From the NCBI GenBank assembly GCA_963720545.1, contig OY970399.1:3296001-3360000 (forward strand): 64,000 nucleotides of DNA, given 5' to 3'. Position 1 is the first letter of the stretch; every line of letters begins with the position of its first letter. Position numbers and translations under genes: made by a program. The notes below the pieces were generated by a model. It had not been told where the DNA came from. It did not search any database and saw only the letters and a program-made list of their open reading frames with translations. Of the stretch, positions 4,799-31,605 are shown piece by piece. This DNA comes from an uncultured Acidobacteriota bacterium (GTDB taxonomy: Bacteria; Acidobacteriota; Vicinamibacteria; Fen-336).

Positions 4799-5395
4799 AT
4801 GGGCGACGACGCCGGCCGGCCGGACGAAGCGCCGGTGCACGAGGTGCGAGTCGCCGCTTTCGCGCTCGGCGCCACCGCCGTGACGAACGAAGAGTACGCG
4901 CGGTTTCTCGCGGCCGGGCTCGCCGCGTCACCGCCGTGGTGGGGCAAAGCCGGCTTCGACCACCCGCGGCAGCCGGTGGTCGGCGTCAGCTGGTTCGATG
5001 CCCAGGCGTGCGCGGCATGGTTCGGCTGCCGTCTGCCGACCGAGGCGGAGTGGGAGTTCGCGGCGCGCGACGACGGGCGCTGGGCGCCTCCAGACGTTCC
5101 GGCGGCTGCGCTTGACGGTCCATGGCTGGTCGGCCTTGGCAGCGCGAACGGCCTCGGCCTCTTCGACATGGGCACCGCGGTGCACGAATGGTGCGCCGAC
5201 TGGTACGACGCCGGCTTCTACGACATGTCGCCGCGCGACCACCCGCGTGGTCCGGCCGCAGGCACGCGGCGCGCGAGCCGCGGCGGCTCGTGGCGGCATC
5301 ACCTGCGCTACTCGCGACCCGCGGCGCGCAGCAGCCTGCCGCCCGAATCGCGCTACGCCGACTACGGCTTCCGACTCGTGAGTGACGTCAGTTGA
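4799..5395 (+). CDS. SUMF1/EgtB/PvdO (formylglycine-generating-enzyme fold) family protein; start uncertain
   Basis: VTNEEYARF, QPVVGVSWFDAQA, RLPTEAEWEFAAR, NGLGLFDM..VHEWCADWY, RGGSW, GFRL. Confidence 0.85.
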   Translation: MGDDAGRPDEAPVHEVRVAAFALGATAVTNEEYARFLAAGLAASPPWWGKAGFDHPRQPVVGVSWFDAQACAAWFGCRLPTEAEWEFAARDDGRWAPPDVPAAALDGPWLVGLGSANGLGLFDMGTAVHEWCADWYDAGFYDMSPRDHPRGPAAGTRRASRGGSWRHHLRYSRPAARSSLPPESRYADYGFRLVSDVS

Positions 5396-6065
5396 GCGTG
5401 AACTTCACAGTGACGCTCATCAGCACCGCCACCGGCACCCCCGAGAGCAGCGTCGGCGTGTAGCGCCACTGCTGCACGGCCTCGACCGCCGCGCGCTGCA
5501 GCAACTGCGGGCCGGACACGACCCGGGCATCGGTCACGTTGCCGTGCGGATCGATGACGCACTCGACCACCACCGTGCCCTGCACCCGTGCCGCGCGCGC
5601 GATCGCGGGATACACCGGATCGACCTGCCGCAGCTTCACTGGCGCCCGCACGTCGCCGCCCACGCGAATGAGCCGCGGCGGATCGGGCGCGGCCGCCATG
5701 CCGGCGATATCGACGCCAATGGTCCCGACGCCGACGTCGTCAACGCCGCCGCAACCAGCACCGCTACACACCTCGCCAACGCCCGCCGGGCCGATGCTTG
5801 CGTCGGCCAGCAGGTCTTCTGGCACGGGCAGCTCATCGGGAACAGCCACCGCAGTGGCGTTCGCCGGCGTCGTAGCCTGGCGAGAGCGGAGAACCCGTGT
5901 CGCAACCACGGCGCGCGGCGGTGCCGGCACCACCAGCACCGGCGTCTCCCAGATCTTGCCGGCGGCAGCGACTACCGGCAGCTCACCGCGCGAGAACCCG
6001 TCGCCAAACCACAGCCCAGCGATGGCGACAGCATGCACCAGCACCGAAAGGACCGCTCTTCGCAT
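5388..6065 (-). CDS. tonB: Energy transducer TonB family protein
   Basis: N-terminal TM with SVLVH, Pro-rich linker, TonB_C domain (PVYPAIARAARVQGTVVVECVID..AAVEAVQQWRYTP); SD GAGGAGG. Confidence 0.85.
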   Translation of the reverse strand: MRRAVLSVLVHAVAIAGLWFGDGFSRGELPVVAAAGKIWETPVLVVPAPPRAVVATRVLRSRQATTPANATAVAVPDELPVPEDLLADASIGPAGVGEVCSGAGCGGVDDVGVGTIGVDIAGMAAAPDPPRLIRVGGDVRAPVKLRQVDPVYPAIARAARVQGTVVVECVIDPHGNVTDARVVSGPQLLQRAAVEAVQQWRYTPTLLSGVPVAVLMSVTVKFTLN

Positions 6066-14911: not shown

Positions 14912-17812
14912 TTAGAAACTGATCTTGGCGCCTGCCTGCAGCTGGCGCTGCTGGTAGCCGGCGGTGCCCGGGAAGTTGAGGGGGTTGACCGGGTTGCCGA
15001 GCGGGTTCACCACCACCGTGCGGTTCACCGCGGCGACGTTCTTGGTGTTGAGGATGTTCTTGCCCTCGATGAACAGCTCGAAGCGAGTGTGCTCGTTGAC
15101 GTTCACGAAGCGCGAGTAGCGGGCGTCCACGTTCCACACGCGGCCGAGGCGGCCGCCGTTGCGCTCGATGCCCAGCGGCCGGTCATTCAGGACGCCGTCG
15201 CCGTTGAGGTCGGTGTTCGCGAGGATGTTGAACGGCAGCCCGCTGTTCGCCTGCAGGATGAAGCCCAGCTGGTTGTTGTCGAGGATGCGGTTCACCAGCC
15301 CGCCACCGCTGACGCGCGGCGCCAGCACGCTCGACAGCACGAACGTGTGCGTCTGGTTGAAGGGCACGACGCCGCGGTCGCGGTCGATGTTCGACGGGTC
15401 GGAGAGCCGGTCGTCGCCGCTGCCGACCGCGTAGGTGCCGGTGAGCGGGGCGTTGTCGGTGCCCTTCGCGTACGTGTAGACCGCCTGCATCTGTACGCCG
15501 TGGCTCATGCGCTTGTTGAGCGTGGCGGTCAGCGCGTTGTAGTTGGCGCGGCCGATGGAGCGGAACGTGTCGACGTGGTTGAAGGTCGGATCGACGCGGG
15601 TGGCCGCGGACACGGTGCCCGAATAGAGCGGCCGGCCGTCGCCGAGCGTGGGGCCGGTGGGCACCAGGTTGGTGTCGATCAGCACCGGCAGGTTGCGGCC
15701 CAGCGAGTTGACGTAGCCGATGGCGAACGACAGATCGTCGCTGAGCGCGCGTTCCAGCTGGATGTTGGTGAGCACGCTCCACTGCGTCTTGAAGTTGGAG
15801 TCGATGGCGACGATGCTCTGCACCGGCCGCGCGAACCCGGGCGGCAGCGACGACAGGTCGCCGGGGAACCCGGGAGCGCCGGCGGCCGTGGGGCTGAGGC
15901 TCACCGCGAGGAAGCGCGGGTCGCCGTTGCGCTGGATCGCATCTTCATAGAAATTCAGCAGCGGCGGCTCGTACATGATGCCGCTCGAGCCGCGCAGCAC
16001 CGTCTTGCCGGCCCGGTCGAGGGTCCAGGCGAAGCCCGCGCGCGGCGCGAAGTTGCTCTTGTCGACCGTGAACTTCTGCGAGCGCGGGTTGGCGGCGAAC
16101 GGGCGTGAATCGGGAATGTCGAACAGGTCGTAGCGCACGCCGAAGAGCAGCTTGAAGTTGGGTGTGAAGCGGATGTCGTCCTGCAGGAAGAAGCCCATGA
16201 AGCGCGAGTTGTAGTCGACCGCCGGGTCGCCGACGTCCTGGGTGAAGGTGGTGTAGCCGAGCGGGTTGCTGCCGTTCTTCGCGGCGAGATAGGCTGCGAC
16301 GTTGGCGAACGTGTAGATCTCGCGCAGCGTATTGAGGCGCTCGTCGTCGATCATCTGCACGTCGAAGCCGGCCTTGAAGCTGTGCGCTCCGGCGATCCAC
16401 GAGAAGTTGTCGACCACCTGGAAGATCTTCTGGTTGAAATCGAAGCCGGCCGACTGGCTGCCGTCGAGCGGCTGGCCGAAGGCGGCGATGCCGCTCACCA
16501 GCACCGCCGGCCCAGAGGTGGGCGCCGACTCGCTGAGCGTGCGGAACTGGTGGCGCTTCGCGTACTGCACGCGCAGCTCGTTGAGGCGGGTGCCGCCGAA
16601 CGACGACACCAGCTGCAGTGAAGCCGAGCCCATCTGGTCGTTGAAGTCGGTGGCGCGCTCGGCGGTGTTGATGCCGCCGCCGATGTTGAAGGGCGAGGTG
16701 TTCTTGAAGAAGTAGTAGCGCGCGCTGAGCCGGTGCTCGGGCGACAGCTCGGCGTCGATCTTGCCAAGTGCGAAGTGCACGTTCTGCTTGGTCGGGATGA
16801 CGCCGCCGTCGGGAATGGCGGCGGCCGACAGCCCCAGAATCGAGGCGTTCTGCACCGCCGAAGACTGGATCACCTTGCTCGCGTCGCGCAGGTCCTGGTC
16901 CACGTACTCGTAGCCGACGTAGAAGTGCACCCGGTCCTTGACGAGCGGTCCGCCGAGGGTGGCGGTGTAGTCCTTGAGGTTGTTGTCGGGCTTGGGCGCC
17001 GCCGGGTTCAGGAAGAACGGCCGCTCGGTCATGCCCGCGGTGCGCTTGCGATAGCCGAGCGAGCCGCGGAAGTTGTTGGTGCCGGACGGCGTGATGGCGT
17101 TGAACACCATGCCGGTCGTCTGGCCGAACTCCGGCGCGAAGCCGCTGGTGATGACCTTGACTTCCTGCACCATGATCTCGGATGAGGGCACGAGCCGCAG
17201 GCCGGCGCGGTCCTTCTGCGTGTTGGTGTTGCCGTCGATCTGGTAGTTGGTGTGCATCTGCGAACCGTTGGCGTTGACGCGCGCCACGCCGAACTCCTGG
17301 TTCTCGTAGCCGGTGACGTTCGCCTGCAGGAACGCGAAGTTGTACGGGTTGCGCGAGACCAGCGGCAGGTTCTTGACCTCGGCGTTGCTGATGGTGCGGC
17401 CGAGGTCGATCTTGCCGGGGTCGGCGATCGGCACGTCGCTGGTCACCGAAACCACTTCCTCGACGCCGCCCACCTCGAGCGTCACGTTGATGACCGCGGT
17501 GCGGCCCGCCACCAGAGTGATGCCGGTGCGTTCGGCCGACTTGAAGCCGGTGAGTTCCGCCTTTACGCGGTAGCTGCCGAGCGGCAGCAGCTGGAAGCGG
17601 TAGAGGCCGTCGGCGGCGGTGCGCGTCTCGCTCACGAGGCCGGTATCGAGGTTCGTCGCGGTCACCGCGACTCCGGGCACGGCGCCGCCCTGGCCGTCTT
17701 CGATGGTGCCTTCGATCGAGCCGTTGATCGCGTTCGATTGGGCAAGGGCCGCGGCGGGGAGCGCGAGTGCAACTGCAACGGCGAGCGCGAGAACAAAGCG
17801 GCGGACCAACAT
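14912..17812 (-). CDS. TonB-dependent receptor, Oar-like, with N-terminal carboxypeptidase-regulatory-like domain
   Basis: Signal peptide; GSIEGTIED..GAVPGV..GLYRF..LPLGSY; plug region NLPLVSRN, IDG, FAPEFG; barrel NFAPRAGFAW; terminal Phe. Confidence 0.92.
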   Translation of the reverse strand: MLVRRFVLALAVAVALALPAAALAQSNAINGSIEGTIEDGQGGAVPGVAVTATNLDTGLVSETRTAADGLYRFQLLPLGSYRVKAELTGFKSAERTGITLVAGRTAVINVTLEVGGVEEVVSVTSDVPIADPGKIDLGRTISNAEVKNLPLVSRNPYNFAFLQANVTGYENQEFGVARVNANGSQMHTNYQIDGNTNTQKDRAGLRLVPSSEIMVQEVKVITSGFAPEFGQTTGMVFNAITPSGTNNFRGSLGYRKRTAGMTERPFFLNPAAPKPDNNLKDYTATLGGPLVKDRVHFYVGYEYVDQDLRDASKVIQSSAVQNASILGLSAAAIPDGGVIPTKQNVHFALGKIDAELSPEHRLSARYYFFKNTSPFNIGGGINTAERATDFNDQMGSASLQLVSSFGGTRLNELRVQYAKRHQFRTLSESAPTSGPAVLVSGIAAFGQPLDGSQSAGFDFNQKIFQVVDNFSWIAGAHSFKAGFDVQMIDDERLNTLREIYTFANVAAYLAAKNGSNPLGYTTFTQDVGDPAVDYNSRFMGFFLQDDIRFTPNFKLLFGVRYDLFDIPDSRPFAANPRSQKFTVDKSNFAPRAGFAWTLDRAGKTVLRGSSGIMYEPPLLNFYEDAIQRNGDPRFLAVSLSPTAAGAPGFPGDLSSLPPGFARPVQSIVAIDSNFKTQWSVLTNIQLERALSDDLSFAIGYVNSLGRNLPVLIDTNLVPTGPTLGDGRPLYSGTVSAATRVDPTFNHVDTFRSIGRANYNALTATLNKRMSHGVQMQAVYTYAKGTDNAPLTGTYAVGSGDDRLSDPSNIDRDRGVVPFNQTHTFVLSSVLAPRVSGGGLVNRILDNNQLGFILQANSGLPFNILANTDLNGDGVLNDRPLGIERNGGRLGRVWNVDARYSRFVNVNEHTRFELFIEGKNILNTKNVAAVNRTVVVNPLGNPVNPLNFPGTAGYQQRQLQAGAKISF

Positions 17813-17908
17813 GAGGAGGGCCTCCTAAAGGAAGACTTTCGAGTATAGCCAAGGTACGATCCTGCGTCTTTTTCGTTTCACGAAAACGCAAGGAAGGGAT
17901 CCCGAAAA

Positions 17909-19687
17909 ATGAATGCACTGGTGCTCTTGCTCGCTGCCGCGCTTCCGATGTTCCAGGCGCCCAAGGCGGCGGCTGCGCCCGCGGCGGGCGACAAGGCCGC
18001 GAAGCTGAAGGCGCTTTACGAACAGTTCTGGGAAGAGACGCTGCAGCTCAACCCGGTGCAGGCGACCTTCCAGGGCGACCCGCGCTACAACGACCAGTTG
18101 CCGAACTTCCTTTCGGCCGCCGACCGCGACAAGAACCTCGACTTCACGAAGCGCTGGCTGAAGACGGTGCAGGACGTCGGCAGCGCCGGGCTCAAGGGCC
18201 AGGACCTGCTGAGCTACGAGATCTTCGTGCACGACGCGGAGAGCGCAATCGAAGGCAGCAAGTTCCGCACGTGGATGCTGCCCATCCACCAGATGGGAAG
18301 CTTCGCGAGCCTGTTCGTGCAGCTCGGTTCCGGCACCGGCGCGCAGCCGTTTGCGACCGTGAAGGACTACGACAACTGGCTGGCGCGCACAGCGAAGATG
18401 CCCGAGATCTTCGACACCGCGGCCGCCAACATGCGCGAGGGCATGAAGGCGGGCGTGGTGCAGCCGAAGGTGCTGATGACCAAGGTGGCGGGGCAGTTGA
18501 GCGCCATCATCAAGGACAAGCCGGAAGACACGCTCTTCTGGGGCCCGATCAGGAAACTGCCGGCGAGCTTCTCCGACGCCGACAAGACCCGGCTCACGGC
18601 CGCCTTCCAGAAGACGATCGCCGAGGGGCTGATGCCGGCGTGGACGCGGCTGCGCGATTTCATCCAGAACGAATACCTGCCGGCATGCCGCGACACCATC
18701 GCGCTCACAGCGCTGCCCGACGGCGAAGCCTGGTACGCGTACAACGTGCGCACCTCGACCACCACCGACCGCACGCCCGCGCAGATCCACCAGATCGGCC
18801 TCGACGAAGTGGCGCGCATCCACGCCGAGATGCAGAAGGTGATGACGCAGGTCGGCTTCAAGGGCACGCTGCAGGAATTCTTCAAGTTCATGACCACGGA
18901 CAAGCAGTTCGGCTTCGCTTCGGAGGATGCGCTGCTCGCGTACTACCGCGCGCTCGAGGCGAAGATCAACGCGAAGATCCCGGGCCAGTTCGCGCTCATC
19001 CCGAAGTCGCCGTTCGAGATCCGCCCGGTCGAGCCGTTTCGCGCCCAGGCGGCGGCTGCCGGCCAGTACTTCCCGCCGAGCGAAGACATGACGCGCCCCG
19101 GCATCTTCTACGTCAACACCTACGACCTGCCGACGCGCAAGACCTGGTTCGCCGAAGCGCTCTACCTGCACGAGGCGATCCCCGGCCATCACTTCCAGAT
19201 CGCGCTGCAGCAGGAACTCACCGACATGCCGAAGTTCCGCCGCTTCGGCGGCGAGACCGCGTTCGCCGAAGGCTGGGGGCTGTACGCCGAGGGCCTCGGC
19301 AAGGACCTGGGCGTGTACACCGATCCCTACAACTACTTCGGCCGCCTGCAAAACGAGATCTGGCGCGCGATCCGCCTCGTGGTCGACACCGGCATCCACA
19401 CCAAGGGCTGGACCCGCGAGCAGGTCATCAAGTACATGATGGACAACTCCGCCGAGAGCGAAACGCAGTCGACCGCCGAGGCGGAGCGCTACGTCGCCAT
19501 GCCGGCACAGGCCCTCGCCTACAAGAGCGGCGAGCTCGCGATCCTGGCGGTGCGCCGCCGCGCCGAGCAGGCGCTCGGCGCAAAGTTCGACGTCCGCGAG
19601 TTCCACGCCGAGGTGCTGCGCGACGGCGCGCTGCCGCTGAGCGTCCTCGACGCCAAGATGGACCGCTGGATCGCCGCGAAGAAGTAG
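17909..19687 (+). CDS. DUF885 family protein (secreted metallopeptidase-like)
   Basis: Signal peptide; HEAIPGHHFQ, FAEGWGLYAE, RLVVDTGIH, PAQALAYK. Confidence 0.9.
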   Translation: MNALVLLLAAALPMFQAPKAAAAPAAGDKAAKLKALYEQFWEETLQLNPVQATFQGDPRYNDQLPNFLSAADRDKNLDFTKRWLKTVQDVGSAGLKGQDLLSYEIFVHDAESAIEGSKFRTWMLPIHQMGSFASLFVQLGSGTGAQPFATVKDYDNWLARTAKMPEIFDTAAANMREGMKAGVVQPKVLMTKVAGQLSAIIKDKPEDTLFWGPIRKLPASFSDADKTRLTAAFQKTIAEGLMPAWTRLRDFIQNEYLPACRDTIALTALPDGEAWYAYNVRTSTTTDRTPAQIHQIGLDEVARIHAEMQKVMTQVGFKGTLQEFFKFMTTDKQFGFASEDALLAYYRALEAKINAKIPGQFALIPKSPFEIRPVEPFRAQAAAAGQYFPPSEDMTRPGIFYVNTYDLPTRKTWFAEALYLHEAIPGHHFQIALQQELTDMPKFRRFGGETAFAEGWGLYAEGLGKDLGVYTDPYNYFGRLQNEIWRAIRLVVDTGIHTKGWTREQVIKYMMDNSAESETQSTAEAERYVAMPAQALAYKSGELAILAVRRRAEQALGAKFDVREFHAEVLRDGALPLSVLDAKMDRWIAAKK

Positions 19688-19820: not shown

Positions 19821-19847
19821 TGTCTAGCAGTACTTGACTGCTGGACA
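19821..19847. terminator. 11-bp hairpin in convergent intergenic region
   Basis: TGTCTAGCAGT-acttg-ACTGCTGGACA with one G-U pair. Confidence 0.4.
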
Positions 19848-20621
19848 GCTGAAACCGAACGGCCCGCGACCCTCGCCGGCCGCTATTATTGGTTCAGCAG
19901 GGCGGTGAGGGTCGGCCAGGTGGACGGGCTCGCGCAGCACGAAGCCTTCGCCGTAGCGGACGCCGATCGTCTGGCCGTGGCGGCGGGCGGCGAGTTCCAC
20001 GGCTTCGCGGAACGAGTCGAAGGGCAGAGGCACCGCATCGCCGCCCGCAGGCTTCTGGAACTGGCTCGCGAACGCGAGCATCGCCTCGATCTTGCGGTCG
20101 AACTCGGCGCTGATGTCGATGACGACGTCGGCCGGGCGCTCGGCGGCCTCGGTCATGGTGAGCGCGTACGCGATCCTTGACGGGCGGAAGGCGTCGCCCA
20201 GGTCCGGCCGGTAGTTGCGCAGGCCCGCCATGAAGCACGCGTCGTAGACGAGGCGGCTCGCGGCCGCGTGGTCGGGATGGCGCTGCTCCCAGTGCTGCGT
20301 GATGACGAGGCGCGGGCGCAGGCGCCGCACTGCCGCGACGATGAGGTCGCGCTGAGCGGTGCCCGGTTCGAGTTGCGCGTCGGGTAGACCCAGCGACTCG
20401 CGATGCGCCACGCCCAGGAGGCGCGCCGCCGCCTGCGCCTCGGCTTCGCGAAGCTGCGGCGTGCCGCGGCTGCCTGCCTCGCCGCGCGTCAGGTCCACGA
20501 TGGCGATGCGCCGGCCGCGGGCCGCCTCTTTGATGAGCGTGCCGCCCATGACCAGCTCGGCGTCGTCGGGATGGGCGCAGAGGCCGGCGATGTCGTAACC
20601 GGTCCCGGCCGGCGCGGTCAT
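19824..20621 (-). CDS. bshB1: Bacillithiol biosynthesis deacetylase BshB1 (true stop probably 19886; see frameshift finding)
   Basis: PIG-L motifs AHPDDAEL, DLTRGEAGSRGT, RHPDH; in operon with bshA and bshC. Confidence 0.9.
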   Translation of the reverse strand: MTAPAGTGYDIAGLCAHPDDAELVMGGTLIKEAARGRRIAIVDLTRGEAGSRGTPQLREAEAQAAARLLGVAHRESLGLPDAQLEPGTAQRDLIVAAVRRLRPRLVITQHWEQRHPDHAAASRLVYDACFMAGLRNYRPDLGDAFRPSRIAYALTMTEAAERPADVVIDISAEFDRKIEAMLAFASQFQKPAGGDAVPLPFDSFREAVELAARRHGQTIGVRYGEGFVLREPVHLADPHRPAEPIIAAGEGRGPFGFSCPAVKYC

Positions 20622-20630
20622 CGGCGTGTC

Positions 20631-20984
20631 CTAGCCGGCACGCGTGCCGTCGGGCACCGCGGCCTCGGGCTGCGCGAGCACCGGCGTCACGCCGTCCTCG
20701 TAGCCGATGTCGAACAGCATGCCGTCTGAGAGCATGCCCGCCATCCTGCGCGGCTCCAGGTTGACGACGAACAGCGCCTGCCGTCCCACCAGCTCCTGCG
20801 GGTCGGCGCGCTCACCCTTCATGCCGGAGAGGATGGTGCGTTCGTGGTCGCCGAACGAGACCACCAGCTTGAGCAGCTTGTTCGAACCAGCCACGTCGTC
20901 GATGCGGCGGATGGTGCCGACGCGGACGTCGAGCTGGTCGAGCACCGCCTTCGCAACCACCGGCTTGATGGGCGCCGGAGTCAT
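20631..20984 (-). CDS. tRNA-binding OB-fold protein (CsaA/Trbp111/MetRS C-terminal-like)
   Basis: LDVRVGTI, KLLKLVVSFG, RTILSG, VVNLEPRRMAGMLSDGMLF. Confidence 0.88.
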   Translation of the reverse strand: MTPAPIKPVVAKAVLDQLDVRVGTIRRIDDVAGSNKLLKLVVSFGDHERTILSGMKGERADPQELVGRQALFVVNLEPRRMAGMLSDGMLFDIGYEDGVTPVLAQPEAAVPDGTRAG

Positions 20985-22105
20985 CAGCCGAGGATCCGTT
21001 CGTAGTACTTCTCGTACTGCGTGACGATGCGCTCGGCGCCGAACAGCGACTCGGCGCGGCGCCTGCCGGCGGCACCAAGTGCCGCGCGCCGCACGTCGTC
21101 CTTCAGGATCTCGACGGTGCGCGCCGCCATCCCCTCGATGTCGCCGACCGGCAGCAGGAAGCCGGTCTCGGTGTGCTGCACCACCTCCGGCAGACCGCCG
21201 GCGTCGGAACCGACGACTGGCACGCCGCACGCCATCGCCTCGAGCGCCGACAGGCCGAACGACTCAAGCTCGGACGGCAGCAGCAGCACCTGCGCCATGC
21301 CCGCGATCTCCTCGATGCTTTCCTGCGTGCCGAGGAAGTGCACCTTGGACGCGATGTTGAGGCGGCGGGCGAGCGCCTGCGCGGAGGAGCGCTCGGGACC
21401 CTCGCCGACCATCAGCAGCACCGACGGTACCTCGCGCGCCACCCGCTCGAAGATGCGCACCACGTCGAGCACCCGCTTCACCGGCCGGAAGTTCGAGATG
21501 TGCAGGAGGATCTTCTCGCCGGCGGGGGCGAACGCCACGGCGTTGTTGTAGGCGCGCGACGGACAGTAGGTGGTGAGGTCGATGAAGTTGGGGATCACCT
21601 CGATCGGCCGCTGCACGTCGAACTCGTCGCGCGTCATCTTGCGCAGGAACTCCGAGACCGCGGTGACGCCGTGCGACTTCTCGATGCCGAAGCGCGTGAT
21701 CTCGAAGAACGAGCGATCCTGGCCGACCAGCGTGATGTCGGTGCCATGCAGCGTCGTGATCAATTTCGGCTTCTCCGGGCTGCCGAGCATCTGCCGCGCG
21801 GTCAGCCCGGCGATCGCGTGCGGGATCGCGTAGTGCACGTGCAGGATGTCGAGCTGGTGTTCGCGCGACACCTCGGCCATCTTCGCGGCGAGCGCCAGCT
21901 CGTGCGGCGGAAAGTCGAAGAGCACGTACGAAGAGACGTCCACCGGATGGAAGGCGATGTTCTGCTGGTAGTCGCCGAGGCGGAACGGCAGGCGGTAAGA
22001 AATGAAGTGCACCTGGTGGCCGCGCCGCGCGAGCTGCTTGCCGAGCTCGGTCGCAACCGCGCCCGAGCCGCCCACGGTCGGGTAGCAGGTGATGCCGATG
22101 TTCAC
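20984..22105 (-). CDS. bshA: N-acetyl-alpha-D-glucosaminyl L-malate synthase BshA
   Basis: IGITCYPTVGGSGAVATELG, HVHYAIPHA, TTLHGTDITLVG, HISNFRPVKR, ESFGLSALEAMACG. Confidence 0.95.
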   Translation of the reverse strand: MNIGITCYPTVGGSGAVATELGKQLARRGHQVHFISYRLPFRLGDYQQNIAFHPVDVSSYVLFDFPPHELALAAKMAEVSREHQLDILHVHYAIPHAIAGLTARQMLGSPEKPKLITTLHGTDITLVGQDRSFFEITRFGIEKSHGVTAVSEFLRKMTRDEFDVQRPIEVIPNFIDLTTYCPSRAYNNAVAFAPAGEKILLHISNFRPVKRVLDVVRIFERVAREVPSVLLMVGEGPERSSAQALARRLNIASKVHFLGTQESIEEIAGMAQVLLLPSELESFGLSALEAMACGVPVVGSDAGGLPEVVQHTETGFLLPVGDIEGMAARTVEILKDDVRRAALGAAGRRRAESLFGAERIVTQYEKYYERILG

Positions 22106-23742
22106 AGGCTCAGCACCTGGTGGCCGTGCGCCCACGGATCCATCCGCCGCGCCACCTCGGCGAGCGCACCGGTGCCGTGGCGCGCCACCATGCCGATGAG
22201 TCCGAGGCCGCGCTCCTGCAGCACCCCGCCGGGAAACAGCTGGTCGCGCGTGCGGCGCAGGCGGTCGGCGCGCGCCTGGTCCTTCTTCTTGAGCGCGCGC
22301 GTCGCCTTCTCGTGCAACACGCCGAGCGGGTGCAGCGCGCGGCCCAGCGCGGAGTCGGTGGCGGCGCGCAGCGTCGGGTCGAGGGCGGCGAGCGTCTCCT
22401 CGACCTTCTTCATCTCGCGGCTGAGGGCATCGCGTGCGCCCGAGAACGCGGCTTCCACTTCGGGGTAGCTTTCCTCGGTCCAGCGGCCGAACAGCGTCTC
22501 GAGGTCGCCCTGCAGGTCGGTGACGCGCAGCCCCTCGTTCTCCAGCGTGCGGCTGGCCGCCGATTCGACCAGCGTGAAACTCGGCCGCGGGATGAGTGCC
22601 GGGCGCTCGATGCCGAAGTGCGCATACGACGGGCCGATCTGCGCGTGGTAGGCGATTTCCGCCGGGCCGCCGATGTAGGCGATCGTCGGCAGCATGAAGT
22701 CCTGCGCCAGCGGCCGCAGCAGCGCGCCGGGGCTCCACGCGGCCGGCTCGCGCTCGAGGCGCGCCAGTGCTTCGTTCATTTCCAGGCGCCGGCCGATGCC
22801 GCGCACTTCGACATGACCGTTCTGCGAGCCCAGCGCGCGGCGCGCGCCGTCCTCGAACAGGAACAGGTTGAGGAAGCCGTCGCGCACCGGTACCTGCTGG
22901 TGATAACCGGCGGCCTTCAACTTCGCGGTCGTCTCGATCGCGAGCCGCGAGCTGGGCGAGCCTTCGGCGAGCTCGCGCCGCAGCACCGGCACCATCAGCG
23001 GCTTGAGCGCCGGGTCGGACGGATCGAGGACCACCATGCCGGGGAACAGCGACGTCATGAGGCGCGCGAATGCGGTGGACATCGAGGTGCCCGGCGCGTA
23101 GGCCACGCGCAGCTTCTCCAGCCACTCGTCGCGATGCACCGAGGGCGGCAGAGCGTCGCGCAGTTCGCCGAGCGCGGCGCCGATGTTGTCGTCGAGGACG
23201 ATGCGCGATGCCGGCAGCCCCGCCGGCTCGCGCCGCGGCGAATAGCGCACCGAGCGGATCTGGCCGGCTTCGTCGAGCACGCTGACGGTGCGGATCTCGG
23301 CGAAGTCGTGATCGTCGGACGCGATCCAGAACACCGGAATCACCGCGCGCCCGGACTTCGCCGCCACCGCCTGCGCCACTTTCTGCGCCGCGAGCGCCTT
23401 GTAGGCGACGTACAGCGGCCCGCCGAAGAGGCCGGCCTGCTGCCCGGTTGCCACCACCGCTGCGCCGGGTTCGGCGAGACGCCCCGCGAGTTCGGCGCTT
23501 GCCGCCGAGCCGCCGAACGCAAGCTGCTGCCGGCGCAGCACCTCGGCCACCTGCTGGTAAACGGCGGCGCTCTCGGGTGTGCGCTGTCTTACGGCGCGTG
23601 CCGCGAGGTCGTCGAGATCGTACTTGCCGCCGCCCAGGAAGCCGCCGGCTGCGCCGGTGCCGCCGAGGTAGTCGAGAAACAGGCGCGTGGGAGCCTGACG
23701 AAAGGCCCCGTACGCGATGAGCGTGTCGTTGTCGGCGGGCAT
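22102..23742 (-). CDS. bshC: Bacillithiol biosynthesis cysteine-adding enzyme BshC
   Basis: ATGQQAGLFGGPLY, PVFWIASDDHDFAEI, SPGALLRP, YIGGPAEIAY, LQER. Confidence 0.93.
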   Translation of the reverse strand: MPADNDTLIAYGAFRQAPTRLFLDYLGGTGAAGGFLGGGKYDLDDLAARAVRQRTPESAAVYQQVAEVLRRQQLAFGGSAASAELAGRLAEPGAAVVATGQQAGLFGGPLYVAYKALAAQKVAQAVAAKSGRAVIPVFWIASDDHDFAEIRTVSVLDEAGQIRSVRYSPRREPAGLPASRIVLDDNIGAALGELRDALPPSVHRDEWLEKLRVAYAPGTSMSTAFARLMTSLFPGMVVLDPSDPALKPLMVPVLRRELAEGSPSSRLAIETTAKLKAAGYHQQVPVRDGFLNLFLFEDGARRALGSQNGHVEVRGIGRRLEMNEALARLEREPAAWSPGALLRPLAQDFMLPTIAYIGGPAEIAYHAQIGPSYAHFGIERPALIPRPSFTLVESAASRTLENEGLRVTDLQGDLETLFGRWTEESYPEVEAAFSGARDALSREMKKVEETLAALDPTLRAATDSALGRALHPLGVLHEKATRALKKKDQARADRLRRTRDQLFPGGVLQERGLGLIGMVARHGTGALAEVARRMDPWAHGHQVLSL

Positions 23743-23871
23743 TAGTGATCTGGATCGCTCGCGACCATTGTATGCGAGCCCCGGTGGATGCTAGATTCCA
23801 TTCACCTTAGTGAAAACCCTCTTCGCCCGAAAACCCGAGGTCTCTCCGGTCCCTGGCGAGTTCCCAGGTCG

Positions 23872-26046
23872 ATGACCGAGAAGGACCAATCGGAAAAGAT
23901 GCCGGCCACCATTGGCCGGTACCAGATCCAGGAAAGCGTCGGATTCGGGGCGATGGGCGCCGTTTACAAGGCGTTCGATCCGCTCATCAAGCGGACCCTG
24001 GCGATCAAGACCATCCGCCTCGACATCCCGAAGCAGAGCGCCCAGTACCAGTCGTTCATCGAGCGCTTCTATCACGAGGCGCGGATCTCGGGCACCTTGT
24101 CGCACCCGCACATCGTCACGCTCTTCGACATCGGCGAAGAGCACGGCATTCCGTACCTGGCGATGGAGTACGTCCCGGGCGACACGGTTTCGGCCCTGCT
24201 CGAGCAGGGTCCGCGCTTCGCACCCGAACGCGTGGTGAGCGTCGTCAGCCAGGTGGCCTCGGCGGTCGACTATGCGCACGGCCGCGGCGTCGTGCACCGC
24301 GACATCAAGCCGTCGAACATCATCCTGCACGAGGGCGACAAGGTTAAGGTCACCGACTTCGGGATCGCCAAGCTCGCGAACGCCGACATGACGCAGTCGG
24401 GCACGCTCCTGGGCACGCCGTCCTACATGTCGCCCGAACAGGCGATGGGCGAGAAAGTGGACGGCCGCAGCGACATCTTTTCGCTGGGTGTCTGCGCCTA
24501 CGAGATGCTTTCGTCGCGCCAGCCGTTCCCCGGCAGCAACGTCACCGCCATCCTCTACAAGCTCGTCAACGAGGAGCCCGCGGTGCCGGCCGACCTCGAA
24601 GCCATCGGCCTGGTGCCCGACAAATGGCGCGAAGTCTTCGCCAAGGTGCTCGCGAAGAAGCCGGCCGACCGCTACGAAACCGCGGGCGCTTTCGTCGCCG
24701 ACCTCGAGTACTGCCTCGCCTCCTGGTTCGGCGGGTTGAGCGACGCCACCATGGTGGGCGCGCGTGTCGCCGGTCCCGAGGACGCAACGGTGGTGACCGC
24801 GGCAACCGCCACGGTTGCGCCGCCGGTCGCCGAGGACGCGACCGTCACGGTGGTCCGTCGCCCCGACGACAAGGCAGAGGGCGCCGACGCGAACGCGGGC
24901 GCGACCGTCCAGATTCCGCCGAAGGCGCCGCCCTCTGGCGACCCGGGAGCCACAGTGGTCACGCCGCCGGTGACCAGGCCGGTGGCGGCGCAGAAGCCAC
25001 CCGTCGGCGGCGCGGTCAAGGCGCCCGTCCCGCCTGCGCCCCCGGCGGCCGCGGCGCCGTCCAAGCCGGCTGCGCCCGGCAGCGCTCCGAAACGCAGCGG
25101 CCTGCCGGTGGTCGTGCTCGGCGCCGCGGCGCTGCTCGTCGTCGGCCTCGTCGGCTGGTTGCTGATGCGCCGCGCGCCGATCCCCGAGCCGACGCCGGCG
25201 CCGGTCGTGGCCGAGACGCCGTCGGCCGAGCCGACGGTTGCGGCGCCGGTCACCGGCACGCTGCACGTCGAATCCGATCCCGCCGGCGCCGCGGTGATGG
25301 TCAACGGCGAAGCGAGGGGCAACACCCCGCTCGACCTCACCGGCCTGCCGTTCGGCGACCTCGCGGTCAAAGTGGACCAGCGCGGCTACGAGTCGCAGAC
25401 GCAAACGGTCTCGCTGTCGGCGGCCGCCGCCGCGGCCGAGGTGAAGGTGACGCTCGCGCGGCGTACACCGACCACGGCGTCGATCGACATTTCGAGCACG
25501 CCGCTCGGCGCCGACGTGCTGATCAACGGCGGCATCGTCGGCCGCACGCCGATCCTCGACCTGAAGCTGCGCGCCAACAACTACAAGGTCGAGGTACGGC
25601 GCGAGGGCTACGAACCGTTCTCGACCAATGTGCGCCTCGAAGCCGGCAAGAAGGGCACCGTAGACGCCGCGCTGCGCGCCGTCGCGGCGGCGCCCGCGGC
25701 CACGGCGCCATCCGCCAGCCATGCCGCCCAGCCGGTGGACACGAGCCGGGTCTACGCCATCGAGGAAGTGGACAAGCGGCCGAACCGCATCGCCGGCGTG
25801 ACCGCGTCGTATCCATCCAACAAGCTTCCCAGGCTGCGCCAGGGCCAGGCCGCCTCGGTGACCGTCAGCTTCCTGGTGAGCGAGGCCGGTGCGGTGTCCG
25901 ACATCAAGGTGACCGAGTCGGGCGGCCCCGTACTCGACGAGGAAGTGGTGAACGCGGTGCGCGGCTTCCGCTACAGCCCGGGCGAAAAGGGCGGCCAGCC
26001 GGTCAAGGTGCGCCTCACCTTCAAGCAGACTTTCCGCGGGGCCTAG
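23872..26046 (+). CDS. Ser/Thr protein kinase with TM helix, two PEGA domains and C-terminal TonB_C domain
   Basis: GFGAMG, LAIK, HRDIKPSN, DFG, GTPSYMSPE; TM LPVVVLGAAALLVVGLVGWLLM; two S.P.GA.V..NG...G.TP repeats; TonB-like YP..VTVSFLVSEAGAVSDI..FRYSPG..GGQPV. Confidence 0.9.
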   Translation: MTEKDQSEKMPATIGRYQIQESVGFGAMGAVYKAFDPLIKRTLAIKTIRLDIPKQSAQYQSFIERFYHEARISGTLSHPHIVTLFDIGEEHGIPYLAMEYVPGDTVSALLEQGPRFAPERVVSVVSQVASAVDYAHGRGVVHRDIKPSNIILHEGDKVKVTDFGIAKLANADMTQSGTLLGTPSYMSPEQAMGEKVDGRSDIFSLGVCAYEMLSSRQPFPGSNVTAILYKLVNEEPAVPADLEAIGLVPDKWREVFAKVLAKKPADRYETAGAFVADLEYCLASWFGGLSDATMVGARVAGPEDATVVTAATATVAPPVAEDATVTVVRRPDDKAEGADANAGATVQIPPKAPPSGDPGATVVTPPVTRPVAAQKPPVGGAVKAPVPPAPPAAAAPSKPAAPGSAPKRSGLPVVVLGAAALLVVGLVGWLLMRRAPIPEPTPAPVVAETPSAEPTVAAPVTGTLHVESDPAGAAVMVNGEARGNTPLDLTGLPFGDLAVKVDQRGYESQTQTVSLSAAAAAAEVKVTLARRTPTTASIDISSTPLGADVLINGGIVGRTPILDLKLRANNYKVEVRREGYEPFSTNVRLEAGKKGTVDAALRAVAAAPAATAPSASHAAQPVDTSRVYAIEEVDKRPNRIAGVTASYPSNKLPRLRQGQAASVTVSFLVSEAGAVSDIKVTESGGPVLDEEVVNAVRGFRYSPGEKGGQPVKVRLTFKQTFRGA

Positions 26047-26080
26047 ACCACCTATACTGGCCTTCGGAGCCAAGGAAGAA

Positions 26081-26662
26081 GTGTCCGGCGTAGACGACGT
26101 CATCGGCGAACAGCGCGTGCCCCTGGTGGCGGACCACGGCCGCCGCGGCGCGTTGCGCGGCCTGCGCGAACTTGCCCAGGACTTCGCGGTCGCGGTCATC
26201 TTCTGCTTCTTCGTCATCACCTACGTCGCGCAGGCGTTTCGCGTCCAGGGCACGAGCATGCTGCCGTTGCTCGCCGACAACGAGCGCATCATCGTCAACA
26301 AGTTCATCTATCGCGTCAGCCCCATCGAGCGCGGCGACGTGGTGGTCTTCTATTTCCCCTCTGATCCGTCGGTGTCCTTCATCAAGCGGGTGGCGGCGCG
26401 TCCCGGCGACACGGTCGAACTGCGTTCGGGCGCGCTCTACGTCAACGGCCGCGCGGTGCGCGAGGACTATGTCGCGAACGCGTACCGCGACACCGGCAGC
26501 TTCGGCCCGCTCACGGTGCCGGCCGGTTACTACTACGTGCTCGGCGACCATCGCAACAGCAGCAACGACAGCCGCTCCTGGGGCGAGGTGCCCGAGCGCT
26601 ACATCTACGGCAAGGCGTTCGCGCGCTTCTGGCCGCTGTCGAAACTGGGCGCCATCCGCTAG
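26081..26662 (+). CDS. lepB: Signal peptidase I
   Basis: GTSMLP, FIKRV, LGDHRNSSNDSRSWG; one N-terminal TM. Confidence 0.93.
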   Translation: MSGVDDVIGEQRVPLVADHGRRGALRGLRELAQDFAVAVIFCFFVITYVAQAFRVQGTSMLPLLADNERIIVNKFIYRVSPIERGDVVVFYFPSDPSVSFIKRVAARPGDTVELRSGALYVNGRAVREDYVANAYRDTGSFGPLTVPAGYYYVLGDHRNSSNDSRSWGEVPERYIYGKAFARFWPLSKLGAIR

Positions 26663-26668
26663 GAAGCC

Positions 26669-27457
26669 GTGAACCGCATGAGGCCCCTCTATCTCGCACT
26701 CTCCGGCGGCGGCGCGCACGCGGCGTCGCATGCCGGCGTGATCAAGGCGCTCGAAGACAACGGCGTGCCCATCGCCGGCGTCGCCGGCGTCAGCGGCGGC
26801 GCGCTGGTGGCGGGCGCCTGGGCCGGCGGCGCCGACCTCGACAGCCTCGTCGACCAGGCCTCGCGCCTGCATCCGTGGATGTGGGTGCGCGGCTGGGGTG
26901 GGGGCCTCCTCTCGGGCACCCGGCTCGGCATGCTGATCGACCAGTTCCTGCCCGAGGCCACCTTCGAGGGGTTGAAGGTGCCGGTGCGCGTGCTCGCCAC
27001 CGATGTCGACACCGGCGAGGCCGTGGTCTTCGACAGCGGCGAACTGCGCGATCCGGTGCGCGCCTCGTGCAGCTTCCCGGGCGTGTTCCCGCCAATGGTG
27101 CTCAATGGCCGGAGGCTCTACGACGGCGGCATCACCGGCGTGGTGCCGGTGCGCATCGCGCGCGACATGGCGGGCGACCAGGGGGTGGTGATGGCGGTCG
27201 ACTGCAACAGCGGCACCAAGTGGCCCATCGCCGACTCGTTCGTCGCCATCGCGCTGCGCGCGGGGCTGACGCTGCTGCGCGGCCGCACCCGCAGCGAGCT
27301 GCTCGGCGCCGACCTGGTGATCGCGCCGTCGATGGGCGATTCGGGCTGGATGCGGCCGGCGAAGATCCCGAGCTTCTACGAAGCGGGCAAGGTGGCGCTC
27401 AACGACGCCCTCCCGGAAGTGCGGCGGCTGCTGCAGGCCGCGGCGATTGCATCGTGA
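26669..27457 (+). CDS. Patatin-like phospholipase
   Basis: LALSGGGA, nucleophile GVSGG, ASCSFPGVFPP, DGG. Confidence 0.9.
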   Translation: MNRMRPLYLALSGGGAHAASHAGVIKALEDNGVPIAGVAGVSGGALVAGAWAGGADLDSLVDQASRLHPWMWVRGWGGGLLSGTRLGMLIDQFLPEATFEGLKVPVRVLATDVDTGEAVVFDSGELRDPVRASCSFPGVFPPMVLNGRRLYDGGITGVVPVRIARDMAGDQGVVMAVDCNSGTKWPIADSFVAIALRAGLTLLRGRTRSELLGADLVIAPSMGDSGWMRPAKIPSFYEAGKVALNDALPEVRRLLQAAAIAS

Positions 27458-28058
27458 CTGCGAACGGCGACGCCGAGCGCGTGACCACGGCGATCGGCCG
27501 CTGACGCTGCCAGAACGAAGCCGGCACCGCACGCAGGTCGGGCTGCGGCAGGCGCGCGCCGCTCATCAGCGCGCGTAGCGCCGCGTTCAGCGGCAACTCG
27601 GACGGGGCGAGGAAGTCTTCCTTGCTGCCCTTGCGGTGCTCGATGAGCGCGGCGTAGCCACTCGGGAAGAGCCGCAGCGAGACGATGCGCGGCAGTGCTT
27701 CGCCGCCTGCATCGGAACAGGAGCGGATGTCGTAGGCGCCGCCGCGGCACGTGAAGACGAGGCACCCGCCGTCGCGGTCCGCGGCGCGCTGTGAAGCACC
27801 GTCCTCGCAAAGCGGCGGGGCATCGCCTTCCGCGGCGGTGGTGCAGGCCGACCACCACTCGGCCCACGGCTCGACCCAGTCGGTCGCGCCGTCCGTTTTC
27901 GGCAAGCCGGACAGTGCGTAGGTCCGCGGCGCGCCCGGCTGCCGGCCCGGATCGCACGACGGCTCGCCGCTGCGCCAGCCGGCGCCGGCGCGCGGCGCCG
28001 CTGCGAATGTCATGACTACCACGGCGGCCAATCCCACGACCTTCGCGCTTGCCAGCAT
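27399..28058 (-). CDS. Hypothetical secreted Cys-containing protein
   Basis: Signal-peptide-like N-terminus and six Cys; fills the gap between genes; 3' end overlaps patatin by 59 nt, so the end is uncertain. Confidence 0.45.
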   Translation of the reverse strand: MLASAKVVGLAAVVVMTFAAAPRAGAGWRSGEPSCDPGRQPGAPRTYALSGLPKTDGATDWVEPWAEWWSACTTAAEGDAPPLCEDGASQRAADRDGGCLVFTCRGGAYDIRSCSDAGGEALPRIVSLRLFPSGYAALIEHRKGSKEDFLAPSELPLNAALRALMSGARLPQPDLRAVPASFWQRQRPIAVVTRSASPFAVTMQSPRPAAAAALPGGRR

Positions 28059-29662: not shown

Positions 29663-30475
29663 ATGAACATGTCACGAGCCGGCTGTGCCGCGCTCCTGTC
29701 CGTGCTGGCCTTCGCATCGCTCCGTGGCGAGGCAGCGGCGCAAGTGCCTTTCGGCGCCTACTGCCAGCAGAATTTCGAGAACAGCTGGCAGAACAACGTC
29801 AACTACGTGTTCCGGCGCTGCGGCTGGTTCATGGACGAACTCGACGACACCGACACCCGCGCCTTCTATTTCAACATGGTCGACGCCAAGCCGTTCTTCT
29901 CGTCGTGCGACACCTGCAGCGGCGCCGTCGACACGGTGCGCCTCGTCTACGCCAGCACCCACGGCAGCGCCAAGGGCAGCGCCGACGCCATGCTCGCCAT
30001 GTGGAACCAGAACATGTGGGCATTGACGAAGACCGACTCGTGGCGGCTGGGCGACGGCACGCCCGAGCCGCTCGGCTTTCTCGCGCTCTACGCCTGCGAG
30101 ACGCTCAACAACGACGACAACAACATCTGGGGGCGATGGGGATCGGCCTTCAGCGGCGGGCTGCTCATGGCACTCGGCAGCCAGGACACCCTCAACGACG
30201 CGCTCACCACCGACGAGACCGGCGAGGATTTCGCCGACAACCTGCAGAAGGGTAAGTCGGCGAAGTGGGCGTGGTTCGACGGCAACGGCGACTGGGACGT
30301 CGACCAGGACGTCGCGGTGATGGCGACCGGAAGCTCCGCAACCGGCGCGCACAACGCGAGCGCCGACTGCGGCTTCCGCCGCGACACCCTCACCTGGCAG
30401 AACGCCCACCAGTACGCGCTCTGGCGCGACGGCCAGGCCGAGTGGTGGTGCGCGTCGAAGATCGACAACAACTAG
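29663..30475 (+). CDS. Secreted DUF6345-like protein with caspase-like His/Cys dyad
   Basis: Signal peptide; VDTVRLVYASTHG, LGD, FLALYACETL, WGSAFSGGL, GEDFADNL..AWFDG pattern; SD GAGGTG. Confidence 0.65.
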   Translation: MNMSRAGCAALLSVLAFASLRGEAAAQVPFGAYCQQNFENSWQNNVNYVFRRCGWFMDELDDTDTRAFYFNMVDAKPFFSSCDTCSGAVDTVRLVYASTHGSAKGSADAMLAMWNQNMWALTKTDSWRLGDGTPEPLGFLALYACETLNNDDNNIWGRWGSAFSGGLLMALGSQDTLNDALTTDETGEDFADNLQKGKSAKWAWFDGNGDWDVDQDVAVMATGSSATGAHNASADCGFRRDTLTWQNAHQYALWRDGQAEWWCASKIDNN

Positions 30476-30501
30476 TCGTGCGGGTAACCATGAGGAAGAC
30501 C

Positions 30502-31605
30502 ATGACCATGAAGAAGCCGCACGCGAACCAGGCCCTGGCACTCGCACTGCTGGCGCTCGCTGCCGCACCCCTGGCGTTCGCGGCGCAGCCGCGTGCGGGC
30601 CACTCGGAATATCTCGCGTCGCTCACCGCGCACGCCCTGGAGCGAGGTGTCGGCCGCGAGAGCGTGCCGGTTCTGTCTCCGGTCGTCGGCGCGGGACGCG
30701 AGGTCACGGCCCGCAAGCTGCTTGCACGGCTGGGCTCGGGCGGCCAGGGTTTCGGCGGGCGCCTGCAACTGGGCGCGCTCAGCCCGGGCCAGGCGGACAA
30801 GCGCATCGCGAGCTATTTCGGCAAGGGCGGATACGTCGACGTGTTCGCGGACGGCAGCAAGCTACGGGTGCGCGCCAACCTCGACGACCCCAAGGCGGTG
30901 GCGGCGGCGGGCGAGGTGGCGCTCGAGAAGGCGGAGCTCGAGACGCTCGGCCGGCGCTTCGTCAGCGGCGCCTTGCGCGACATCGTCAAGGTCTCGGCCA
31001 ACGAGTCGGTGACCTTCCTCGGCGTGCGCCACCTCGTGAACTACGAAGGCAGCGTGGACGGGCGCACGCGCGCCAGCCGCACCATAGCCAACATCGCGAT
31101 CTTCGGGCGTGAGGTCGGCGGAATTCCGGTCGTCGGCAGCGGCTCGAAGGTCGCGGTGTGGTTCGACAACGCCCGCCAGCCCGTCGGCTTCGACGTCGAT
31201 TGGCCCGAGTATCGCGCCGCCGGCGGCACACAACGCGTCCTGGGACAGCGGGAATTGGCCGAACGCGTGGCGAAGACCACGATTCCGCTCACCGGCGAGA
31301 ACGCGCCGCGCCGCTTCGAGTGCGGCTACGTGGACCTCGGCGCCACCCGCCGCGGCAAGTCGCTCCAGGCCGGCTGCGAGATCGCATGGGAGCGCCGCGG
31401 CAAGGACGGCGGCGTGTCCGCGCACGTGGAGTTCGTGCCCGCGGCCGTCAAAGTGCTCGAGGATCCGCGTTGGCCGCTGGCGGCGGCGATTGCCTCGGGC
31501 GAGACGCCGAACACGCTGAGCGCCGAGTTCGCGAAGTGGGTGGACGGTCCGAAGCCGCCGCCCGCCCCGGCCGCGAACTATGCCAAGGGCAAGGTGAAGC
31601 CCTAG
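30502..31605 (+). CDS. Hypothetical secreted protein, partner of the DUF6345-like protein (alternative starts 30490 and 30508)
   Basis: Signal peptide KKPHANQALALALLALAAAPLAFA; FGREVGGIPVVGSGSKVAVWFD..GFDVDW beta-motif; typical codon usage. Confidence 0.7.
   Translation: MTMKKPHANQALALALLALAAAPLAFAAQPRAGHSEYLASLTAHALERGVGRESVPVLSPVVGAGREVTARKLLARLGSGGQGFGGRLQLGALSPGQADKRIASYFGKGGYVDVFADGSKLRVRANLDDPKAVAAAGEVALEKAELETLGRRFVSGALRDIVKVSANESVTFLGVRHLVNYEGSVDGRTRASRTIANIAIFGREVGGIPVVGSGSKVAVWFDNARQPVGFDVDWPEYRAAGGTQRVLGQRELAERVAKTTIPLTGENAPRRFECGYVDLGATRRGKSLQAGCEIAWERRGKDGGVSAHVEFVPAAVKVLEDPRWPLAAAIASGETPNTLSAEFAKWVDGPKPPPAPAANYAKGKVKP

Follow-up and report, generated by a model that had tools for sequence, protein, structure and literature searches.

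A Ser/Thr kinase-PEGA-TonB_C fusion in an uncultured Acidobacteriota bacterium: a candidate envelope-signalling protein

We analysed a 64,000-nucleotide stretch of DNA (the window) from an uncultured Acidobacteriota bacterium of the class Vicinamibacteria (contig OY970399.1, positions 3,296,001 to 3,360,000), and focused on a plus-strand gene at 23872..26046 whose 724-amino-acid (aa) product joins a Hanks-type Ser/Thr kinase, a linker, a single membrane helix, two PEGA domains and a TonB_C domain, as read from its translation and from Pfam and NCBIfam profiles. The reading frame is open, an alternative in-frame ATG at 23788 would add 28 residues to give a product of 752 aa, and a database protein of 723 aa shares 99% identity. 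The gene is real and unstudied, and our literature search found no published description of a kinase-TonB_C fusion. An initial annotation of this gene had listed an intact kinase, a Pro/Ala/Thr-rich juxtamembrane region with repeated ATV motifs as possible phosphosites, one membrane segment lacking the SxxxH motif of TonB, two PEGA domains and a C-terminal TonB_C-like domain, and had proposed that the protein reads receptor occupancy and converts it to Thr phosphorylation without energising transport.

The domain architecture and the intactness of the catalytic motifs are established, and on these structural points the initial annotation was borne out, with the Pkinase, PEGA and TonB_C profiles each scoring above its Pfam cut-off. 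The catalytic domain (residues 17-269; 23920..24678) scored 171.8 bits against Pkinase (PF00069, cut-off 31.7), and holds the full motif set, with the glycine loop GFGAMG at residue 24, LAIK at 43, HRDIKPSN at 142, DFG at 162 and SPE at 187. It is followed by a Pro/Ala/Thr/Val-rich juxtamembrane linker, predicted to be cytoplasmic (residues 286-409; 24727..25098), whose composition, motif positions and T[VIL] counts mark it as a candidate region for autophosphorylation and FHA docking, and which places five ATV motifs between the kinase domain and the helix. The membrane helix (residues ~410-433; 25099..25170) is the only strong hydrophobic segment of the protein (Kyte-Doolittle hydropathy 2.7), and contains neither Ser nor His, so that a search for SxxxH found none. 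Beyond the helix, PEGA (PF08308, cut-off 20.8) scored 96.3 bits in two stretches, the first a beta-sandwich at residues ~461-527 (25252..25452) and the second at residues ~535-600 (25474..25671; best Pfam stretch 537-602). The protein ends in the TonB_C domain with its N-terminal lead-in (residues ~627-722; 25750..26037), which scored 46.8 bits against PF03544 (cut-off 24.6; residues 656-721) and 41.7 bits against tonB_Cterm (TIGR01352, cut-off 27.1), and which carries a YP motif within SYPS and a last strand, VKVRLTFKQTF, that is conserved in orthologues. All of these features lie on the plus strand.

For the periplasmic part, we used an alignment, A1, of residues 440-724 of the kinase with 26 orthologous segments, and an AlphaFold2 model of residues 440-724, with a mean predicted local distance difference test score (pLDDT) of 89.7 and values above 89 over the TonB_C domain. 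The model consists of two all-beta domains, matching the two PEGA stretches, which a disordered linker of 30 residues connects to a beta-beta-alpha-beta domain at the C-terminus. In Foldseek comparisons the PEGA domains resembled the regulatory domains of carboxypeptidases N and D (2nsm, 1qmu), and the best Protein Data Bank (PDB) match of the C-terminal domain was 6i97_D (TMt 0.85, root-mean-square deviation 2.2 Å, 27% identity), which is the C-terminal domain of P. aeruginosa TonB solved with the receptor FoxA; further matches were the TonB proteins of Salmonella, E. coli and P. aeruginosa (8rd6, 1u07, 1xx3, 6fip). E. coli TonB chains (1xx3, 2gsk_B; some solved with BtuB or FhuA) were also recovered by phmmer at E ~6e-4 to 2e-3, in an alignment that spans the YP motif through the last strand, and both the YP core and the last beta-strand are conserved among the 27 orthologues of A1. 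Since the profile scores and the model fold both match solved TonB domains, the domain described as TonB_C-like has a true TonB_C fold.

To place this domain among its relatives we searched the whole genome, a single contig of 4.09 Mb (G000), which holds 13 TonB_C matches in 11 open frames. Four of these frames encode short proteins of 225-317 aa with SxxxH in their N-terminal helix, among them the TonB encoded at 5388-6065 of the window, and four others are kinases by Pfam, namely the window kinase, L069 (590 aa, Pkinase-PEGA-TonB_C), L070 (G000:C1 1050269-1052335; 688 aa, with a partial Pkinase match, a membrane helix, an Ala/Glu-rich composition and TonB_C) and L071, which we describe further below. 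SxxxH is absent from all four kinase-TonB_C proteins. In blastp comparisons within the genome, the TonB_C domain of the window kinase was 40, 36 and 34% identical to the other three kinase-linked domains (E 2e-16 to 1e-6), as against ~30% identity to the canonical TonBs (E ~3e-6 or weaker); judged by these identities, the tip belongs to a sub-family of kinase-linked TonB_C domains. A TonB_C-like tail also occurs on L072 (G000:C1:438007-438723, minus strand), a zf-HC2 anti-sigma-like protein with one membrane helix, where it scored 23.2 bits, just below the Pfam cut-off, and 25.6 bits in the genome search; L072 looks like an anti-sigma counterpart of the kinase-TonB_C fusions. About 4 kb from L070, the frame L073 (G000:C1:1056864-1058258) carries three tandem TonB_C domains (126 bits in 3 stretches).

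Because the membrane helix is without SxxxH, a motif kept in the four short TonBs, the proposal that the protein works without energising transport is a reasonable one, and we describe the tip as a TonB_C fold that looks uncoupled from ExbBD. A functional TonB energy transducer with an added kinase is an extremely improbable reading of the protein, and one for which the TonB_C domain alone speaks. Such a transducer would have to operate with a helix that lacks the motif and lies 410 residues away from the N-terminus, no ExbB or ExbD family was found by Pfam among the 42 window proteins scanned, and the genome already encodes four conventional short TonBs.

We then considered how widely the architecture occurs. 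A word-indexed search with the periplasmic part retrieved 27 proteins, 12 of which combine Pkinase, PEGA and TonB_C; the labels at source read 'TonB family protein' or 'serine/threonine-protein kinase'. Within a sample of the class, some match at E <= 1e-5 was present in 99 of 101 genomes, with full-length matches clustered in the window's own family and a few others, and within a sample of the phylum a full match to the PEGA2-TonB_C part at E <= 1e-25 was present in 15 of 301 genomes (G000 included), from four families. At all 18 loci retrieved from outside the class sample (L051-L068), a kinase domain lay upstream in the same orientation. A profile search with A1 over 1.84 billion representatives returned 179,855 matches at E <= 1e-3, of which 6,001 reached E <= 1e-30; the top 150 are crowded with multi-PEGA repeat proteins, which makes the profile search useless as an architecture census. 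Two PEGA2-TonB_C matches in relatives, G089:C2:1951112-1951936 (L026) and G033:C308:8229-9050, contain one in-frame TAG each, and may be pseudogenes or sequencing errors.

Downstream of the kinase, the window encodes a signal peptidase I (LepB; 26081..26662, plus strand; Peptidase_S26, 160.8 bits), a partner gene whose adjacency is conserved in relatives. Its GTG start codon at 26081 follows the kinase stop at 26046 after a gap of 35 nt, a terminator scan of this junction found no terminator-like site between the two, and a patatin-like gene comes next. We examined gene context at 20 Vicinamibacteria loci (L031-L050), and in every one of them a gene for a membrane protein with FHA, double-zinc-ribbon and RDD domains (confirmed by Pfam on two loci and by tblastn on all) starts at most ~20 nt past the kinase stop; LepB comes after this FHA-RDD gene in 19, and the 20th ends at a contig end. 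The same order of kinase, FHA-RDD gene and LepB was found at L051, in an unclassified Acidobacteriota genome. In another acidobacterial family (f27), the kinase is followed directly by LepB, without the FHA gene, in 3/3 loci (with a gap of 4-8 nt in the two checked with Pfam), and the flanks there are unrelated, with no bshC and with beta-helix, sulfatase and acyl-CoA dehydrogenase genes among the neighbours. The kinase-LepB adjacency thus persists where both flanks have changed, and the kinase is part of a conserved kinase-(FHA/RDD)-signal-peptidase unit that the window genome retains only as kinase and peptidase.

The FHA-RDD gene is not next to the window kinase, where the 35-nt gap leads directly to LepB. 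An assembly artefact was ruled out as the cause, since a contig of 1,068 nt assembled from a different soil metagenome run spans 25836-26700, and thus bridges the kinase-LepB junction, with 8 differences and no gaps. Nor was an FHA+RDD protein found elsewhere in the genome, in which tblastn with two orthologous FHA-RDD proteins gave separate FHA and RDD matches only. The best of these, for the FHA part only, was L074 (G000:C1:3777628-3778479, minus strand), a protein of 283 aa with an FHA domain followed by several hydrophobic segments, which could stand in as a reader of the kinase. On the other side of the kinase, divergent from it on the minus strand, lies a bacillithiol cluster at 19824-23742 comprising bshB (PIG-L), bshA (GT4) and bshC. 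By clustering of open reading frames (ORFs), bshC is divergently upstream of the kinase in 19 of the 20 Vicinamibacteria loci (20 counting the window); we rejected a link between the kinase and the bshCAB genes, as bshC is not adjacent in the f27 loci. In an RNA run (X20), the start of LepB and the 5′ end of the kinase gene were covered only by short contigs of 94-97% likeness, which are not evidence of expression, and the read-depth peaks at 24205-24507 are due to conserved motifs that kinases of many organisms share.

The LepB association bears on one alternative account of the protein, according to which the PEGA/TonB_C ectodomain would bind the cell wall or the inner face of the outer membrane, and the kinase would control envelope biogenesis together with a co-transcribed LepB; the ectodomain would then be an anchor, or a sensor of envelope integrity or secretion, by a logic analogous to that of the PASTA kinases. 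In its favour are the conservation of the kinase-LepB adjacency across two classes with differing flanks, the absence of a terminator-like site at the window junction, and the kinase domain, which is most similar to the PknB/Stk1 type (310.2 bits against NF033483, PknB_PASTA_kin, a score that is below the 450-bit cut-off and covers residues 15-316 only). Peptidoglycan binding by the C-terminal domain of TonB has also been proposed; our literature search found no such paper. We nevertheless regard this account as doubtful, given that Pfam detected no peptidoglycan-binding domain in the kinase protein and that the LepB link could be mere co-transcription. A complex prediction combining the ectodomain (A1 positions 20-285) with the periplasmic domain of LepB (A2 positions 56-193) scored 0.00, which gives no answer either way.

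The linker provides a second line of comparative evidence. Juxtamembrane phosphothreonines of PknB-type kinases recruit FHA proteins, and FHA domains prefer a hydrophobic residue at the +3 position of the phosphothreonine. In the window kinase the linker, of 127 residues and rich in Ala, Pro, Val, Gly and Thr, has ATV at residues 305, 313, 323, 344 and 360, and the motif (E/D/P)-(A/E)-T-V-(V/L)-(M/L) is repeated in it and in 19 orthologues. Over these 20 linkers, we counted 134 T[VIL] dipeptides against the 50.1 expected from composition-preserving shuffles (6 against 1.8 in the window linker), and in 14 of the 20 the observed count was reached in at most 17 of 1,000 shuffles; M, L and I are enriched at +3 of the T[VIL] motifs. 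The phosphosite idea, which the initial annotation had raised for the ATV motifs, fits these counts and gains comparative support from the enrichment across orthologue linkers, and it is plausible that the T-V motifs are phosphosites serving as phosphothreonine docking sites for FHA domains.

With moderate confidence, we interpret the protein as a receptor-type, non-energised Hanks kinase of the inner membrane, the TonB_C tip of which docks on an exposed strand of an envelope partner. The topology, energy-free docking, phosphosites and FHA read-out that we infer for it are as follows. The catalytic domain and the Thr-Val-repeat linker would face the cytoplasm and one helix would cross the membrane, with the two PEGA beta-sandwiches acting as a spacer and TonB_C forming the periplasmic tip. 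Since the protein is without the ExbBD-coupling membrane motif, the tip would transduce no energy; its docking would be passive and, as in TonB, would work by beta-strand augmentation, the target being a strand exposed on an envelope protein, most plausibly a TonB-box-like N-terminal one. Docking would alter the clustering or dimerisation of the kinase, which would then autophosphorylate on its T-V repeats and so recruit FHA-domain proteins. In the relatives, the signal would pass to the FHA-zinc-ribbon-RDD membrane protein encoded directly downstream, and in the window organism it would go to one of 12 other FHA-matching genes or to other substrates.

The docking step could also be replaced by self-association, with TonB_C serving only as a self-association or localisation module that dimerises the ectodomain without sensing a ligand. 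Dimerisation is a common mode of activation among Hanks receptor kinases, and several of the TonB C-terminal fragments matched by the domain (1ihr, 1u07) are dimeric crystal forms, both of which fit such a role. We consider it improbable, however, as the free edge strand and the YP lead-in are strongly conserved over the 27 orthologues, a pattern that suggests a conserved heterologous partner.

Several observations weigh against our interpretation of the kinase as a docking receptor with an FHA read-out, or narrow its reach. In families f41 and f49, all 14 kinase-PEGA2(-TonB_C) loci lack both LepB and FHA next door, which confines the LepB link to a single orthologous group. The window genome has one RDD frame, which is without FHA, and none of its 12 FHA matches falls in it; with the cognate FHA-RDD gene absent, what the relatives suggest about the read-out may not apply to the window organism. 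The residues at +3 of the five window ATV motifs (T, P, V, I and T) are less hydrophobic than those of orthologues keeping the FHA partner. Finally, the TonB_C domain closest in the genome to that of the window kinase (the 40% match) belongs to L071 (G000:C1:770280-771782, minus strand), a 500-aa Pkinase-PEGA-TonB_C protein with no detectable membrane helix (best 19-residue hydropathy 1.31). That L071 carries the PEGA-TonB_C module without a helix weakens the case for a strictly periplasmic, receptor-reading role, and the module may work in the cytoplasm or bind a target other than an envelope protein.

The envelope partner of the docking model could be a TonB-dependent receptor, as the initial annotation had proposed when it pointed to a receptor and a separate TonB in the same window. 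Both genes were found, and both are on the minus strand. The TonB (5388-6065) has a TonB_C domain of 78.2 bits and the membrane motif SVLVH, and the receptor (14912-17812) has, by Pfam, an N-terminal CarboxypepD_reg domain, OMP_b-brl_4 and a TonB-dependent-receptor barrel, with a TonB-box-like segment, VEEVVSVTS, judged by eye, after the N-terminal domain. A Plug domain was not detected in the receptor by Pfam at E <= 0.001, the 31 Plug matches of the genome do not include it, and Pfam showed no N-terminal signalling domain there either. Many of the weaker Plug matches of the genome fall in similarly long frames (~925-1285 aa), which leads us to suggest that a divergent plug type may be common in this genome. 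Nothing links either gene to the kinase: between receptor and kinase lie five unrelated genes, DUF885, bshB, bshA and bshC among them, the distance from the TonB to the kinase is 18 kb, and no homologue of the window receptor was found within ±7 kb of the kinase in the 20 orthologous loci. A conventional cell-surface signalling set is likewise missing from the neighbourhood, as no extracytoplasmic function (ECF) sigma factor, FecR-type anti-sigma factor or signalling-domain receptor was found by Pfam among the 42 window proteins scanned.

The proposal in full, that the tip competes with TonB for the TonB boxes exposed by ligand-loaded receptors, and that occupancy thereby becomes Thr phosphorylation, is in our view possible and rather unlikely. 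What suggests it is the true TonB_C fold, closest to a TonB domain solved with a receptor, together with the presence and conservation of the edge strand that TonB uses; targets would be plentiful, given at least 31 Plug-domain matches in the genome (26 above cut-off), the window receptor has its TonB-box-like segment, and the same genome encodes the anti-sigma-like protein with a TonB_C-like tail. Against these stand the lack of any linked receptor gene, the unrelated genes that lie between the kinase and the window receptor and TonB, the conserved neighbours, which are cytoplasmic-membrane proteins and include no outer-membrane receptor, and L071, which bears the same module without a membrane helix.

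The remaining ORFs of the window that we noted are a DUF885 protein (595 bits; 17909-19684, plus strand), which overlaps an opposite-strand ORF (17825-19606, minus strand) that is without a Pfam match and is probably spurious, and two ORFs with coding-like composition and no Pfam family, of 219 aa (27399-28058, minus strand) and 446 aa (30265-31602, plus strand).

To our knowledge, the role described for TonB_C is almost exclusively that of the force-transmitting tip of TonB. Its presence as the sensor end of several kinases in one genome, and on an anti-sigma-like protein in a more diverged version (23.2 bits, below the Pfam cut-off), suggests reuse as a general periplasmic docking module in signalling. 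Should its partner be a TonB box, outer-membrane receptors would have another path to the cytoplasm, one that does without ECF sigma factors, and it would sit in soil Acidobacteriota, a phylum with almost unstudied signalling. Speculatively, cell-surface signalling in Acidobacteria may take a kinase-based form, in which TonB_C-tipped kinases (four in this genome) and a TonB_C-tailed anti-sigma-like protein dock energy-free on TonB-box-like strands, with the resulting phosphothreonine read by FHA proteins, and in which the lineage of this gene connects that signal with signal peptidase I, hence with protein export; we think this scheme possible and rather unlikely. The conserved kinase-signal-peptidase pair offers a concrete, testable link from Ser/Thr phosphorylation to protein export, and the window genome and family f27, both naturally without the FHA-RDD partner, allow the two natural forms of the system, one having this partner and one lacking it, to be compared.

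Among known systems, the TonB energy transducer of E. coli, P. aeruginosa and Salmonella (PDB 2gsk, 2grx, 6i97, 1u07, 1xx3) shares its fold with the tip, along with the YP motif, a conserved Gly, Trp/Phe-x-Tyr-x-Pro and the C-terminal edge strand. TonB has a short N-terminal anchor and a Pro-rich rod, whereas the kinase has a 410-residue cytoplasmic kinase-linker region before its helix, PEGA domains in place of the rod, and no SxxxH. The pairing of the kinase with an FHA membrane protein recalls PknF-Rv1747 of M. tuberculosis, a kinase-FHA membrane-protein pair, as the orthologues likewise have the FHA-RDD gene next door in 21 loci and the linker carries repeated T-V motifs, although the window kinase abuts LepB instead. 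With the FecA-FecR-FecI system the likeness is one of concept, in that an inner-membrane protein with a docking domain in the periplasm would connect an outer-membrane receptor with a response in the cytoplasm; no ECF sigma factor, FecR-type anti-sigma factor or signalling-domain receptor is linked to the kinase among the window proteins scanned, and its output would be phosphorylation. Like the PASTA kinases (PknB/Stk1/StkP), the protein has a kinase domain, a juxtamembrane linker, one helix and repeated small extracytoplasmic domains, but its sensor would consist of two PEGA domains and TonB_C in a diderm envelope instead of PASTA, no family of which appeared in the Pfam output for the protein. 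TonB_C-like domains outside nutrient uptake have a precedent in GltG and GltJ (AgmX) of the Myxococcus gliding machinery, where they are proposed to bind a TonB-box-like segment of a partner (PMC9389320, PMC8262864). GltG and GltJ are coupled to the AglRQS proton motor and involve no kinase, and the NCBIfam profile for the C-terminal domain of AgmX/PglI (NF033768) matched the kinase protein only weakly, at 15.3 bits against a 40-bit cut-off.

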